A DNA stretch of 64,000 nucleotides from NCBI GenBank assembly GCA_963522115.1, contig CAUQWN010000001.1, positions 212,916 through 276,915 of the forward strand, written 5' to 3'. The notes below the pieces were generated by a model. It was given only the letters and a program-made list of their open reading frames with translations. It did no database searches and was not told the DNA's origin. Shown here one piece after another: positions 27,499 to 64,000 of this stretch. The position numbers and the translations under genes are program-made. Numbering within the stretch: the first letter of the stretch is position 1; each line of letters begins with the position of its first letter. Source of the stretch: an uncultured Candidatus Saccharimonas sp. (lineage in GTDB: Bacteria > Patescibacteriota > Saccharimonadia > Saccharimonadales > Saccharimonadaceae).

Positions 27499-29745
27499 TT
27501 AGAATCTTGCAGCTTTTCGGCTAGCGAAGTAGTAACCAAAGGCGGTCACCATTGATGTTAATCCAAGAATTGCAGAAAGTGTATTTGCACCAGTTTGTGG
27601 CAATTCTGTTGGAATATTTGGTGTTGGGTTGTTTGGTGTAGGTGCTGGTGGAGTTTGTTTCTTTGGAATTTCCACTTTTGCGCTATCACAACCATCATTA
27701 TCACCAGGAATTGTTGGCGTATCTACACAAGCTGTATTTACAGCAGTCATTCCTGTTGCTGTTGCTTGTGATTTAATTGTAATAGTTTTGCTTTCACCAA
27801 CTTTCAAAGATTTAATCTTTAGAGTTAAAGTATTATCTTTGATTTCACCGCTATCGGCACTTACAAAAGTAATATTTGCTGGTGCACGGTCGGTTACAAC
27901 AACATCTTTCAAATCAATATTTCCGTTATTCGAAACTGTAATCTCGTAGTTAAAATCAGTATTTGCTTCAATTTTAGCATTTTTCTGATTATTTACAGTT
28001 TTCTTGATAAGGATTGAAGGTTTTTCTTCACGTTTAACTTCAAAAGATTTTTCACAATTTGAATTTGAGTTTTCGCCATCTTTTGTGATAACTGTTGAAG
28101 AAATTGTGAATTTGCCAACAATTTCAATGTCGAGTGTTAATTTTGAGCCGTTATTTACAGTTTTCTCGATTATAATTTTACCACTTTGATCTTTTACGAT
28201 ATATTTAATGCCAACGAATGTTGTGTTATTTGCAGTATAAGAAGTGTTAAATTCGAATTTTGTTCGAGAGATTTGGTTAATTGTAATATTTCGACATACC
28301 AATTCCGATTTAGATGGAACTGGCGCTGAAGCTTTAGTTTCGAAAGATTTTTCACAGTTAGTATTTGAATTTTCACCGTTTTTAGTGACGATTGTTGAAG
28401 TAACTGTGTATTTTTCGTTCACATTATTTGGAACGGTAATTTCGAATTTAGTTCCACCATTTACAACTTTTTCGGCAACAACTTCATTTTTTGAATTTTT
28501 TACTACATATTTTGTGCCAGTAAATTCTGTATCTTTTACTGAATATTTTGTGTCAGCAGCATAAGTGATTTGCTTTTCATCTTTTCGGATAATGTTCAAA
28601 CTTAAAGCTTCACATTTATAAACTGGATTTTTAGGAGTTTCACATTTTTTTGTAACTTTTACGCTTGCAGTATCGTTTTTAACGATTTTTTGGTCACTTG
28701 CTTGAGCGATGTTAGTTAGAGTGTTATCTCCACAAACTGGCAAACTATTCTCAGCTGAAACAGTTGCGTCAAACCGAACATAAGCGTCGCCATTTGGTTG
28801 ATATGAACCGATATTGATTCCAGAATTTTGAATTACATTGTCGCTGACTTTCAATCCTTTTGGATTTGATGTGTTGTAGAGCTTTGTTGAGCCTGCAACA
28901 TAATTCAAGCCTTTTGGTAGAATGTCGCGAATTACAAGATTCTGAATTCCTGCAGAACCTGTATTTTTAGCATGAATTTGGAATTGAACTGTGTCGCCAG
29001 ATTTTGCATTTGCAGTTTCAACCCAAGATTTTTCGCCATTTGTTTTATTTCGAACTGTTTTTGCAAGGTCGATGTTAGTTTTTTCTTGCGGTTGGCTAAC
29101 TTGAGCTTTAACTTTAACGGTTACATAACCTGCATATTGGAAACATCCAGGAATTTTTCCGTCAAGTTTATCATATCCAAGTTTTGCTCCAGTATTATTT
29201 ACAATACTGTCTGGAAGTTTAGTTGTACCCATTCCGTTATTTTCGAAAAGAGCAGAACCAGCAACATAAGCTAAGTTGAAGTCATTATCGCTTGAAAAAG
29301 TTGCTTCGTCCCAAACTGTGTTAGGTTTTGCATTTGAAGCTGAAATCTGACCTTGAACAGTCACATTTTTTGCTGTTGTTGTTGGAACGTTAAGTTTTGC
29401 TACTACGTTTTCGGCAACAAGATTTAAGTTCGAAGCTGCGTTGTTGTGAACGTACATTCGAACGTAATATTCTTTGCCATTTTGAACTTTCATATTGTTT
29501 GTCCATTTTGCGTTTGAGCCAACTTCACGAATTCCAACGAAATCTTTTTCGTCTCCGCCGATCACAGGGTTATTTGTGATTGAGTTGAATGTAATATAAT
29601 CTGCTGGTTTTTCAATAGTGAATGATGGTCGAGCTGGACCCCAAGCCCAAACTAGAGCTGGAGCTACTGCTGCCACCAAAACTGAACCAGAGATTATTGA
29701 ATGGTTTTTAATAAAATTAATGAGTTTTTTCATTTGGTCCCTCAT
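27499..29745 (-). CDS. LPXTG-anchored multidomain surface protein with DUF11/CnaB-like domains
   Basis: Signal peptide; two DUF11-like domains (LAKTV..GDTVQFQI..KNTG..VIRDILP; IKKTV..YEITVSNNG..VVTDRAP); Pro-rich linker; LPQTG + TM + RK tail. Start is 29745 or 29733. Confidence 0.88.
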   Translation of the reverse strand: MRDQMKKLINFIKNHSIISGSVLVAAVAPALVWAWGPARPSFTIEKPADYITFNSITNNPVIGGDEKDFVGIREVGSNAKWTNNMKVQNGKEYYVRMYVHNNAASNLNLVAENVVAKLNVPTTTAKNVTVQGQISASNAKPNTVWDEATFSSDNDFNLAYVAGSALFENNGMGTTKLPDSIVNNTGAKLGYDKLDGKIPGCFQYAGYVTVKVKAQVSQPQEKTNIDLAKTVRNKTNGEKSWVETANAKSGDTVQFQIHAKNTGSAGIQNLVIRDILPKGLNYVAGSTKLYNTSNPKGLKVSDNVIQNSGINIGSYQPNGDAYVRFDATVSAENSLPVCGDNTLTNIAQASDQKIVKNDTASVKVTKKCETPKNPVYKCEALSLNIIRKDEKQITYAADTKYSVKDTEFTGTKYVVKNSKNEVVAEKVVNGGTKFEITVPNNVNEKYTVTSTIVTKNGENSNTNCEKSFETKASAPVPSKSELVCRNITINQISRTKFEFNTSYTANNTTFVGIKYIVKDQSGKIIIEKTVNNGSKLTLDIEIVGKFTISSTVITKDGENSNSNCEKSFEVKREEKPSILIKKTVNNQKNAKIEANTDFNYEITVSNNGNIDLKDVVVTDRAPANITFVSADSGEIKDNTLTLKIKSLKVGESKTITIKSQATATGMTAVNTACVDTPTIPGDNDGCDSAKVEIPKKQTPPAPTPNNPTPNIPTELPQTGANTLSAILGLTSMVTAFGYYFASRKAARF
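28035..28620 (-). repeat. Two tandem ~100-aa (300-bp period) Cys-bounded Ig-like repeats inside the surface protein
   Basis: KY.VK....EK.VN.G.K...K.T..ST..TK.GENSN.NCEKSFE.K occurs twice; DNA similarity is visible at 28041-28080 versus 28341-28380. Confidence 0.85.
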
Positions 29746-29846
29746 TTTCTCCCTTCTAATCTCCACTTATTAGAATTTATTATTAGTATCATCATAATTC
29801 TGTTTGTCAATATTTTGTTTTCTTCGCTTTAGCCGAATTGTTAAAA

Positions 29847-29876
29847 CTTAAAATCGGGTTATTAAGAAGTATCAAT
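29847..29876 (+). repeat. Left copy of a ~30-bp imperfect inverted repeat (partner at 31426-31456)
   Basis: CTTAAAA-TCGGGTTATTAAGAAGTATCAAT. Confidence 0.8.
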
Positions 29877-29881
29877 GTAAA

Positions 29882-29906
29882 GCCGGGCGGCGGAAAACCG
29901 CCCAGC
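29882..29906 (-). terminator. GC-rich hairpin downstream of the orphan gene (weak U-tract)
   Basis: Minus strand GCTGGGCGG-ttttccg-CCGCCCGGC followed by TTT only. Confidence 0.6.
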
Positions 29907-29962
29907 GTGAGTTTCGAAAGATTTTAATCTTTCACAAAGTGCAATCGTTAAAATCAAAGTTG

Positions 29963-31351
29963 CTAGTCATCAATTGCAGGCTCGCTCATAGAGCTGTTAC
30001 CTGCGAAGTTAGCCGAACTACTTGGAGCCGTAGTTCCATTTGCTCCGGATTGAACTGCTGGAGCAGATTGACCCACCAAGCCATCGTATTTCCGGCCATC
30101 TGGGGTAGTTACAGATCCATTGTCGGTCAACTTTGTGGTGCCGTTGGAATCAGTAACCGTGCCAGCGCCAGACCATTGAGATGGCTCACTTACACGAGCA
30201 TCTTGTGCTGGTGCAGATGAGCTTGCCGGTGCAGATGGAGCTGTTGGTGCAGAGTAGCTTTCAGGTAATTTTGCCTGAGTGGTCTCAGTACCATTTTCGG
30301 AGCCATCATTTTGGCCGCCCCCAACAGGGGCTTTTCCTTTGTTGTACGGATCTTTGCTCGGATCCTTCGATGAAACCTTGCTTTCGCTCGGTTTTGAAGG
30401 CTCTGATGGCTTTTCTGGCTTTGGTTTTGGAATTTCGATTTTTTCTGTCGGAATTCCGGGAATATTGTTATTTTTCATAACAGTATTTCCACAGTAAACC
30501 AAAACACAATAGCTGTACTTCTCAGTTGAACCCTTAGGGTTCGAAACTTCAACATACTCTTGACCTGAAAGGTCAAGTGCATTTTTGCTGATAACTACAT
30601 CACCTTTGTCATTGACGCCAGTAGTGTAGTAGTTTGAATTATCTTCCATTTTCTTGGAAGAAATTCGACTCCGTGAAAGAAATGCCTTCGTTTGATAGAA
30701 AACATCCTTTCCCTTGCTATTGTAATAAACCTCCCTGTTATTCTTCTTTTCTAGCCAGTCTTTAACGTCAGCTTTTGCGTCAACGATACCGAAAGCCATA
30801 GCCTTCTCTTTCAAGGCAGTTGCATTATGGCTCATATACTGAACCATTTCGTTAACCGCGTTTTCAGCGTTTGCTGAAAGAGTGTTTTTATCTGACCCAT
30901 TTGCAAATACTTTGTGTTGCGTATTTGCAATTTGGCTGTCGTAAACTACAGTATCGCCGTCGACCTTATAGTCGACGATCTGGAACTCTTCCTTCGGAAG
31001 ATCCATATTTGAATTGGCTACGGAAGAAGTAGCGACCGTGTTATTGCTTGCATTAGCACTTTTTGGTGTCAAAAACAAAAAGTACAACGCTGCTCCGCTA
31101 ATTGCAAGTATAAACAGTGCACCGATAGCTGTTTTTAGCCAAATATTTGGCTTTGACTTTACGATTTCAGTACTAGCAGCTTCATTATGCTTCAACTTAT
31201 TTAGAATGCCTTGAAGGTATTCTAATTTTTCTTCGTCGGTTTTGAAAGCTGAGGCGTTAACCTTAACTTGATGAAACCATTTCATTGCCTTCTTATCGTC
31301 GCCAATAAAACCTTGGATTTTCTCTAATAGTTCTTTGATTTTTGTGTCCAT
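29963..31351 (-). CDS. Orphan bitopic surface protein with Pro/Ser/Thr/Gly-rich C-terminal tail
   Basis: Strong SD (GGAAAGGAAGGTG) before the ATG at 31351 (MDTKIKELL); one TM helix; extracellular domain with CVLVYCGN; low-complexity tail. Confidence 0.8.
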   Translation of the reverse strand: MDTKIKELLEKIQGFIGDDKKAMKWFHQVKVNASAFKTDEEKLEYLQGILNKLKHNEAASTEIVKSKPNIWLKTAIGALFILAISGAALYFLFLTPKSANASNNTVATSSVANSNMDLPKEEFQIVDYKVDGDTVVYDSQIANTQHKVFANGSDKNTLSANAENAVNEMVQYMSHNATALKEKAMAFGIVDAKADVKDWLEKKNNREVYYNSKGKDVFYQTKAFLSRSRISSKKMEDNSNYYTTGVNDKGDVVISKNALDLSGQEYVEVSNPKGSTEKYSYCVLVYCGNTVMKNNNIPGIPTEKIEIPKPKPEKPSEPSKPSESKVSSKDPSKDPYNKGKAPVGGGQNDGSENGTETTQAKLPESYSAPTAPSAPASSSAPAQDARVSEPSQWSGAGTVTDSNGTTKLTDNGSVTTPDGRKYDGLVGQSAPAVQSGANGTTAPSSSANFAGNSSMSEPAIDD

Positions 31352-31425
31352 TTTTATTTCACCTTCCTTTCCATATATTTTTTTATTATTTTGGCTAAAA
31401 CAATAAATGAACACTGAGGTACACG

Positions 31426-31456
31426 ATTCATACCTCATAATAACCCGATTTTTAAG
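31426..31456 (-). repeat. Right copy of the ~30-bp imperfect inverted repeat
   Basis: Minus strand CTTAAAAATCGGGTTATTATGAGGTATGAAT; 27 of 31 columns identical to the left copy. Confidence 0.8.
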
Positions 31457-31499
31457 CTTCATTGACAGATCTGCTGATTATGATATGTCAACTGCTAGA

Positions 31500-31528
31500 A
31501 TTATAGCACAAAAGTATTAAAAAGTCAA
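31500..31528 (-). promoter_or_regulatory. Sigma70-type promoter of the orphan surface-protein gene
   Basis: TTGACT-17 nt-TATAAT with TG extension. Confidence 0.8.
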
Positions 31529-31612: not shown

Positions 31613-32044
31613 TTATTGTACTGGTGGAAGCCTACGACTTTTTTTAGGATTCTCCTTTGTCCCATTCTTTTTTAGATCACTTTTATGATATTCCTCTATT
31701 AGAATATCACAAATTTTTGTTAAAATCGATGGTTCTTCATCTTCTTCATCAGTGTTGGGCGTTAAGGAATATGCCAAAACGACCAAAATCACACCCGCGA
31801 CCCAGAGATACCATTGGGGAAGTGTGTTGAATAAAATCCCAATGAAAATGAGAGTTCTGATGAAAAATCCAGAACTCCACCAAAAATCGCATATTTTAAA
31901 ATACTTGTCTAGTTTAACTACTGCATAGAATGTTGCGAGAACAAGTACTCCATAGACAACTGCGAGATCGTCGAGAACGCCAAAAGTAATGGCGTTAGCT
32001 GTTCGCAAAACGAATAAAAGTATATTTGCAATAAGGTTGATCAT
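31613..32044 (-). CDS. Orphan membrane protein
   Basis: 143 aa with 3-4 hydrophobic segments; SD GAGGGG; promoter TTGACT-17-TATTAT (32109-32137); terminator AAATCACCTT-cgaa-AAGGTGATTT at the 3' end. Confidence 0.75.
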   Translation of the reverse strand: MINLIANILLFVLRTANAITFGVLDDLAVVYGVLVLATFYAVVKLDKYFKICDFWWSSGFFIRTLIFIGILFNTLPQWYLWVAGVILVVLAYSLTPNTDEEDEEPSILTKICDILIEEYHKSDLKKNGTKENPKKSRRLPPVQ

Positions 32045-62501: not shown

Positions 62502-62957
62502 ATGGCATCAAATAGACATTTAGGAAGGATTGTTGTTCTTCAAACACTTTATGAATATGAATTTCGCTCTCAGGCACAAGATAAAACTGTTGACTTGGCT
62601 GAGATTATTTTTCGAAATATGAAGCAATATGAAGAAGCGATTGGAGATAAGCAATTCGTTCAAGATTTATTAAACGGGATTATTGAAAGACAGGTTGAAC
62701 TGGATACGAAACTTCAGCCAATGGCACCGGAATGGCCAATTTCACAGATTGCGCGAATTGACCGTAATGTTTTAAGGATGGGGCTTTATGAATTGCTTTA
62801 TTCTCGAGAAACAGTTCCGCCAAAAGTGGCTATAAATGAAGCAGTTGAGCTTGCAAAAGCGTTTGGTTCCGATAATTCAAGTAAGTTTATTAACGGCGTA
62901 TTAGGAACGGCGTATAAACTTTTTGTGGAGGAACAAAATGGCGAACAAGAAGGTTGA
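62502..62957 (+). CDS. nusB: Transcription antitermination factor NusB
   Basis: [36 protein letters not shown]. Confidence 0.96.
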
Positions 62958-63435: not shown

Positions 63436-64000
63436 TGAGTGGAATTTTATTGGCGCCCTATCATGAATGGGCGAAAGAGAAACTTGGTTATGATTTCGAA
63501 AATATTAATTTATTAGTGACCGCATTGACACATCGAAGCTATTTAAATGAACATAAAAAATCGGCAAGTGAACATAATGAACGACTTGAGTTTTTGGGTG
63601 ATGCGGTTTTAGAGCTCGTTACTACTGATTTTCTATTTTCAAACTATGATAAGCCTGAGGGAATTTTAACAGCTTGGCGTTCAGCATTAGTTAGAACTGA
63701 AAGTATTGGTGCGGCTGGCGAAAGACTCGGCTATGAAAAACTAATTCGGATGAGCCGTGGTGAAAAACAAGGTTCTGCAAGGGCTCGCCAGCAGATTTTG
63801 GCAAATGCTTTCGAAGCGACTACGGGTGCTATTTATCTTGATAAGGGTTATGAAGCTGCAAAAAAATACATCACAGATAACATTTTGAGTACTCTGCCAC
63901 AAATTCTAGAGGAAGAATCTTGGCGTGACCCAAAGAGTTATTTACAAGAGATTTCACAAGCAAGAGATGGTTTTACGCCAATTTATAAGGTTCTTAAAGA
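63435..64000 (+). CDS. rnc: Ribonuclease III (3' end runs off the window)
   Basis: Manual translation: ALTHRSY, HNERLEFLGDAVLEL, ANAFEA..GAIYLD, DPKSYLQE. Confidence 0.96.
   Translation, partial: MSGILLAPYHEWAKEKLGYDFENINLLVTALTHRSYLNEHKKSASEHNERLEFLGDAVLELVTTDFLFSNYDKPEGILTAWRSALVRTESIGAAGERLGYEKLIRMSRGEKQGSARARQQILANAFEATTGAIYLDKGYEAAKKYITDNILSTLPQILEEESWRDPKSYLQEISQARDGFTPIYKVLK

Follow-up and report, generated by a model that had tools for sequence, protein, structure and literature searches.

What is the function of an inverted repeat of about 30 bp that encloses a membrane-protein gene and leaves the promoter of that gene outside? The repeat lies in a 64,000-nt stretch of DNA (here called the window) from an uncultured Candidatus Saccharimonas sp., whose genome (G000; 694 kb, 35% G+C) has relatives with two rRNA sets. 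Saccharibacteria are tiny parasites of other bacteria, and the locus bears on how Patescibacteria take over their hosts. A sequence-only reading of the window had placed the open reading frame, its Shine-Dalgarno sequence and a downstream hairpin between the arms of the repeat and the promoter beyond them, all of which were found where it had put them, and it had offered two explanations: inversion of the cassette by a recombinase, giving ON/OFF phase variation, or pairing of the 5' UTR of the message with its 3' trailer.

The arms, at 29850-29876 and 31426-31452, match ungapped at 24 of 27 positions, or at 27 of 31 with one gap, around a perfect 15-bp core. The best other site in the 694-kb genome matches an arm at no more than 20 of 27 positions; the pair is unique there, and the search for additional arm copies that had been proposed came back empty for this genome. 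Among its 1868 gene or operon units, the arms form the best of all leader-trailer pairings (score 50.5; mean 25.5, sd 3.3). The enclosed gene is referred to below as the cargo and the enclosing helix as the frame. The features discussed are:

27499..29745 (-): gene for a DUF11/LPXTG surface protein; it lies outside the frame and is found next to it, downstream, throughout the order
29833..29845 (-): second boxA-like motif, with 12 of the 13 letters of the genus 23S-leader motif
29843..29876 (-): 3' arm of the leader-trailer helix
29882..29906 (-): G+C-rich hairpin with a three-U tail, its structure conserved across the genus
29916..29933 (-): variable trailer hairpin
29963..31351 (-): cargo gene (462 aa), highly variable between strains
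31344..31414 (-): helix that, in the predicted fold, buries the start codon along with part of the Shine-Dalgarno site (31359-31372)
31415..31437 (-): local hairpin in competition with the long helix over its inner half (pairing 0.36 vs 0.55)
31426..31460 (-): 5' arm of the leader-trailer helix, matched by a spacer of a foreign CRISPR array
31456-31447 (-): boxA-like motif opening the 5' arm, with A where the rRNA leaders have C
31461..31492 (-): 5' hairpin in a boxB-like place, its stem co-varying; precedes boxA as in the genus 16S leaders
31500..31528 (-): sigma-70-type promoter (TTGACT-17-TG-TATAAT, 11/12), conserved in the genus
62526..62915 (+): nusB, by NusB domain match; candidate reader of boxA
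63504..63893 (+): rnc, identified by its match to the RNase III domain; candidate enzyme for cutting the helix

Pairing in RNA, and the case against a DNA switch

The arms change jointly across the genus, and matched insertions are present on both sides in five loci (L006, L012, L017, L036 and L037). In 102 distinct arm pairs the sense strand has 2600 Watson-Crick pairs, 176 G-U, 37 A-C and 105 other mismatches, as scored with a neutral aligner, the order-level arms having first been located by a G-U-tolerant scorer; 85 loci favour G-U and 4 favour A-C. The 16 genus arm pairs that could be anchored on the promoter give the same picture, with G-U at 42 and A-C at 5. Since the arms co-vary and G-U exceeds A-C on the sense strand, the pairing is at the level of RNA. 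In a fold of the predicted 1674-nt transcript, 31460-31439 pairs with 29843-29863, most probabilities being near 1, and the predicted RNA helix reaches 31460/29843, beyond the repeat arms as found in DNA. The second of the original explanations, UTR-trailer pairing, is thus borne out by paired substitutions and indels, by the strand-specific G-U excess and by the whole-transcript fold; of the two patterns that had been suggested for telling an RNA from a DNA function, compensatory and G-U changes or strict identity, the former was found.

Transcription would start near 31493, judging from the promoter. In 29 of 32 genus loci, as opposed to 88 of 186 control genes, the predicted fold has the start codon paired, and the helix that buries it co-varies in sequence; at the other end, the G+C-rich hairpin at 29882-29906 is probably not a full terminator. 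Neither leader nor trailer matched any Rfam family, ribozymes included. Leader hairpins with self-complementary loops (GGCC, GCGC or GCGCGC) are seen in L026-L028, L030, L031 and L035 and in the window at 31387-31412, and are a possible dimerisation signal. Of 24 public runs listed, 20 contained small shares of matching sequence. No end-to-start (circle) go-back joints were found in four public runs, at thin coverage, and the circularising ligase RtcB exceeded the cut-off in 0 of 61 genomes. One true RNA run yielded a 160-nt contig within the cargo at a depth of 2.4, a cover too thin to be evidence on expression.

The fim, hin and shufflon systems are invertible promoter or gene cassettes, and the cassette resembles them in having inverted repeats of about 30 bp around a surface-protein gene, though it differs in lacking a second orientation and a linked recombinase and in the strand asymmetry of its mismatches. 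A switch flipped by a recombinase acting in trans would be in keeping with the promoter outside the repeats and with three tyrosine recombinases encoded elsewhere in the genome; as had been remarked from the sequence, no recombinase adjoins the repeat, and a search of the genome for resolvases gave none. Against such a switch, the series tRNA-Val, small membrane ORF, variable gene and DUF11/LPXTG gene has one orientation in all 33 genus genomes that were resolved at the locus (35 were searched, the other two being G007 and G020). A pattern that fits both arms, run against metagenomes, had 57 matches -- 31 5' arms and 25 3' arms in their native flanks, and one CRISPR spacer -- and there were no hybrid (flipped) junctions in the 56 genomic copies from these contigs, nor any exchange of arm-specific letters. 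Strand-switch joints were likewise absent from the four public runs, whose coverage is thin. Because assemblies display the majority form and would hide a minority orientation, these counts leave room for a rare flip. As an explanation of the repeat, the invertible switch was nevertheless rejected, the arm mismatches not being strand-symmetric and the arm-specific letters being fixed, and we hold it to be extremely improbable; phase variation by inversion, the first of the two original explanations, is given up with it.

A real candidate for DNA inversion or pilin-tip exchange, judged by its sequence, lies elsewhere in the genome (C2:96920-98279, L325), where a perfect inverted repeat of 233 bp covers the promoter region and N-terminus of two convergent pilin-like genes, at 97004-97528 (+) and 97725-98195 (-).

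Likeness to the rRNA leaders of the genus

The rRNA genes of G000 are unassembled, and rRNA leaders were for this reason read from the relatives G005, G016 and G021. In these the 16S leader runs from a promoter through a hairpin to a TTTAACAATT motif, the first part of a 5' arm that forms a helix with the trailer; this motif also occurs in the 23S leader, with TGG behind it. Both ends of contig C1 of G000 itself are 16S leader stubs with this layout. The order in the cassette is promoter, hairpin, boxA-like motif, 5' arm, gene, 3' arm and a second boxA-like motif in direct orientation, the last standing behind the first unit as it does in the 16S-23S spacer of rRNA operons. The cassette motifs are nearly identical to the boxA-like motifs of the genus's own rRNA leaders, and the second is the sole intergenic match of its 13-letter pattern in the genome; from their position and their likeness to the published consensus (PMC5725501, available in part), they are read here as boxA. 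The genes for NusB and RNase III adjoin each other at the end of the window, and NusA was seen in G001, with a homologue in G000.

In E. coli, according to the available parts of two accounts, the boxA-bound Nus complex brings the leader strand of the rRNA operon to its trailer partner, forming an RNase III site, and the cassette shares with this boxB-boxA-boxC antitermination system the hairpin, the boxA and the long leader-trailer helix (PMC8632103, PMC10250234). It differs from rRNA operons in enclosing a membrane-protein coding sequence (1-5 ORFs) with a ribosome-binding site and a buried start codon, and in having no Rfam match. The cassette probably works like an rRNA leader-trailer system without belonging to that class, the enclosed RNA being protein-coding.

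Other messages show parts of this arrangement. Type I toxin mRNAs such as hok have 5' and 3' ends that pair and so silence translation, and the early mRNAs of phage T7 are processed by RNase III; the points of likeness are the paired ends, the burial of the start codon and the use of processing for stability. Those are short toxin or phage messages with no boxA, whereas the cassette spans 1.5-3.8 kb, is chromosomal and has been kept vertically across the order. No antisense partner for the cassette RNA was seen. Among gamma-proteobacterial mRNAs, some of which boxA regulates, suhB of E. coli resembles the cassette in having a boxA in the 5' UTR of a protein-coding gene; there a single boxA near the start codon represses translation, and the available part of that account describes no enclosing helix, second boxA or shift in codon use or folding (PMC5725501).

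Two minor observations concern the same motif. The 16S and 23S genes of the genus (L045-L055) each have their own promoter and boxA-like motif, the 16S unit ending in a terminator-like hairpin, and two prophage-like regions of G000 (C3:2600-12000 and C5:21500-29700) have in common a non-coding segment with a boxA-like motif at its start.

The enclosed gene and its distribution

The window protein consists of a small helical N-terminal domain, a membrane helix (70-92), an alpha/beta domain (about 120-300) with a conserved C-G-N and a Pro/Ser-rich tail. One membrane anchor or signal, a compact alpha/beta domain and a low-complexity tail recur across the cargo family, the profile of which matches 23 of 88 main cargo proteins, with the C-G-N motif in 41. 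The gene had been called an orphan, which holds for its annotation only: no Pfam family exceeded the cut-off for this protein or for 20 other cargo proteins, but 512 homologues were found, the family reaching into other families of the order. A model of the core domain has a pLDDT of 84 and a pTM of 0.85; the best Z in a fold search with it was 2.6 among 48161 chains, and neither the full model nor the Atlas gave a usable match. Both the cargo and the small membrane ORF upstream (31613-32044) are mosaic, with 65-97% DNA identity against 89-98% for the DUF11 gene.

The DUF11 N-terminus was detected in 88 of 121 genomes of the order. Sixty of these, together with four reached through the cargo protein, supplied the 64 upstream regions examined, and in 33 of them a frame (the helix, by inspection) precedes the DUF11 gene; in most of these the arm sequence is a common one and a boxA-like motif stands on both sides. 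These 33 cover 28 families of Saccharimonadales; a lack of conservation in homologous loci, which the sequence-only reading had named as a finding that would count against it, is therefore not what was seen. The arm motif has 93 matches among 185,579 species genomes. Among the 80 of these matches listed, 64 are titled Saccharibacteria and 68 have a 3' arm, 10 of the 12 without one being cut by the end of a contig. The next gene behind the frame is the DUF11 gene in 48 of 63 cases, again among the matches listed.

The frame is not confined to one kind of cargo, and the proposal to look in relatives for other genes between the repeats was rewarded. Several or tandem frames per genome were observed in eleven cases (L216, L226, L227, L250, L261, L271, L224, L288, L218, L290 and L265), the cargo of these genomes being unrelated, including small membrane proteins, and having genome-like GC3. 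It includes a pair that we take to resemble LemA with a partner, and a protein that presumably resembles a phage tail lysozyme.

Six families show both framed and frameless states. That the frameless DUF11 loci are mere paralogues was considered and rejected, since several of the genes without a frame are clearly homologous to the cargo, whether each is an orthologue or possibly a second copy. The order holds a built-in comparison of a homologous gene with and without the frame. L089 (G232), a cargo homologue with promoter, hairpin, boxA-like motif, a long leader and a folding z of -15.9, has an ordinary terminator; no 3' arm was found there, and the locus is possibly a half-way state. The Southlakia Tn-seq tables list two DUF11 genes, and the cassette gene was not identifiable among their entries. 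No description of the cassette was found in the literature searched, which lay outside subscription papers and preprint supplements.

When framed genes are compared with frameless genes at the same position, the median of GC3 minus that of the flank is +0.27 (n=32) for the former and -0.07 (n=24) for the latter, and a folding z below -2 relative to synonymous shuffles is found in 31 of 32 and 5 of 24, respectively. Seven truncated regions and one with too little flank were dropped, and L089 was counted as stem-less despite its boxA-like leader and its z; the z values, from 8 shuffles per gene, are rough, the ORF chosen may be in the wrong frame in a few loci, and the loci compared are kin, not independent, which makes P values too favourable. 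In five genomes the cargo has a GC3 of 0.61-0.85 and the ribosomal protein genes one of 0.29-0.37, so this is not the usual bias of high expression; the untranslated parts of the cassettes have a G+C content of 0.49, so neither is it a foreign block. The window's own cargo is a mild case in codon use, with a GC3 of just 0.36 against a median of 0.24 (rank 6 of 489), and its folding z is -5.7; an excess of folding is seen too in the DUF11 gene of the window (z -4.0), which the frame does not enclose. Cargo GC3 tracks the flank GC3 of the parasite (r=0.54), with 5 of 56 cargo genes not above their flanks. Even low-GC3 cargo shows excess folding (z -20 in L216, -3.8 in L229), and the codon shift is greatest in A/U-rich triplets (TTC 0.92, AAG 0.91, AAC 0.88) and milder in the Ala and Gly boxes; selection for folding alone could have raised GC3. 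That a conserved, pre-rRNA-like frame at the RNA level surrounds a protein gene and is coupled to these shifts in folding and codon use is a conclusion in which we have high confidence.

The arms might instead be the terminal inverted repeats of a mobile DNA cassette carrying foreign G+C-rich genes, a reading for which one could cite the arm sequence kept across many families and the occurrence, in some genomes, of multiple or tandem copies around unrelated cargo. We consider it very unlikely: terminal repeats would not account for the excess of G-U over A-C or for a bulge of 1-4 nt that recurs only on the 3' side, the boxA-like motif is repeated in direct and not inverted orientation, the position before the DUF11 gene is fixed in most loci, the G+C excess is limited to coding positions, and homologous cargo exists both with and without the frame. 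No transposase-like cargo was noted among the framed cargo inspected.

A foreign CRISPR array and the fate of the message

The CRISPR spacer encountered in the metagenome scan belongs to an array (L208) with a 36-37 nt repeat, unusually variable repeats and a weak Rfam match. The spacer equals the 5' arm, at 35 of 35 positions in L011, L013 and L022 and at the first 31 of 31 in G000. In total, five of the seven readable spacers correspond to transcripts of the genus, and on one and the same array strand all five read as sense RNA: two of the others match a long leader at 10.2 kb of C1 and a 5' UTR at 62.6 kb of C2 in G000, and two further ones match coding regions of G024 and G001. The repeat occurs in 0 of 35 genus genomes, and the owner of the array is therefore another organism, likely a host; the repeat was not found in viral contigs, plasmids, phages or the relevant papers. 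We assume from the end of the repeat, which we take to be typical of type III-A systems, that the guide RNAs would be antisense to the transcripts. A single polarity for five spacers arises by chance 1 time in 16, in what is a single array, and could also come from DNA uptake with later selection. Four of the five matched spacers target transcripts with no frame, so the array shows exposure to the nucleic acid of the lineage generally and not export of cassette RNA. It does mean that another oral bacterium has been immunised against chromosomal transcripts of this lineage, and that mining of spacers can name the lineage's host. The available part of the description of oral clade G6, to which the traits of the lineage appear to conform, reports no CRISPR system and no known host (PMC8386444).

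A second peculiarity of the cargo concerns its signals. A lipoprotein signal pattern is found in 15 of 88 cargo proteins (about 13 of them convincing), against 8 of 382 flank proteins, several of which are the frameless gene at the same position, and 1 of 488 of the genome's own proteins. Lgt was not detected in any of 121 order genomes or 35 genus genomes, nor LspA in any of the 121 from the order; textbook lipoprotein signal peptides are thus seen order-wide in genomes with neither enzyme detected. Such signals point to maturation in a host membrane, for frameless genes too, and because frameless and flank genes also carry them they are not specific to the delivery of RNA. An undetected substitute for Lgt is possible.

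Our reading of the whole, to which we give a little less than even weight, is that a membrane-protein message is framed like pre-rRNA, likely folded with the help of Nus factors and trimmed by RNase III, and possibly delivered to the host. The arms would be the two ends of a single transcript, complementary to each other and selected for pairing on the sense strand. By analogy with rRNA, NusB-NusE would bind boxA, and the modified polymerase would read through the weak hairpin and bring the 5' arm to the 3' arm; RNase III would then trim the helix, and the paired ends left behind would protect the RNA against exonucleases. Taken by themselves, Nus-assisted folding and trimming by RNase III are probable. 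With its coding region extra-folded and rich in G/C-ending codons and its start codon predicted to be buried, the product is likely to be a long-lived, translationally silenced RNA. In the last step, the least certain, packaged RNA would enter the host, and host ribosomes would make a parasite protein seated in the host membrane. The foreign spacer on the 5' arm, the lipoprotein signals with no Lgt or LspA and the several frames with unrelated cargo were counted for this step; a preprint reports, in its available part, RNA moving in the opposite direction, from host to parasite (10.64898/2026.06.21.733656). It is only tentatively that we suggest mRNA as an effector, made stable and silent by Nus factors and RNase III, adapted to host codons, used by host ribosomes and the host lipoprotein pathway and recorded by an RNA-targeting CRISPR system of the host.

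The same pre-rRNA-like processing may serve an RNA that stays in the parasite, as a stable, silenced store of a host-attachment message held through a host-free stage and translated on contact, high GC3 then serving folding and nuclease resistance and not host ribosomes. Such storage needs no export step, and it fits the folding excess of low-GC3 cargo, the concentration of the codon shift in A/U-rich triplets, the correlation of cargo GC3 with the parasite's own flanks and the parasite's own 16S end, which has a normal anti-Shine-Dalgarno sequence. It leaves the lipoprotein signals and the foreign spacer unexplained, and codons so far from those of the ribosomal protein genes would be costly for fast use by the parasite itself; we think it rather less likely than not to be the answer, though it is the chief rival of delivery to the host. 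A purely regulatory device, with no processing, would have the long helix and the hairpin at 31415-31437 set the translation of the cargo, and boxA antitermination carry transcription into the DUF11 gene. That hairpin does compete with the inner half of the helix, the helix over the AUG begins directly behind it, most loci have a second boxA-like motif ahead of the DUF11 gene, and boxA-regulated mRNAs offer a precedent (PMC5725501, in its available part). It is mainly in the clade of the window, however, that this hairpin overlaps the arm, relatives have a promoter-like site belonging to the DUF11 gene itself, and folding of the whole coding region and the codon shifts are left unexplained, so that this explanation appears unlikely.

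Even on the conservative reading, the cassette puts rRNA transcription and processing signals to a new use, on a protein-coding RNA, and one that has been kept across an order. If the RNA does reach the host, it would amount to delivery of mRNA between bacteria, and the frame would be a natural device for stabilising and exporting messages; if the effector reading is true, spacers would offer a way to name the hosts of uncultured lineages. All steps can be tested because cultured, transformable Saccharibacteria exist, as the available part of one report indicates (PMC10633639).

One of the other spacer targets deserves mention in its own right. The leader at C1:10180-10480 of G000 (L323) is non-coding, about 280 nt long, with no Rfam match, and stands behind a strong promoter near tmRNA; it precedes an operon that encodes, among others, a protein of 973 aa with weak likeness to a type IV secretion coupling protein.
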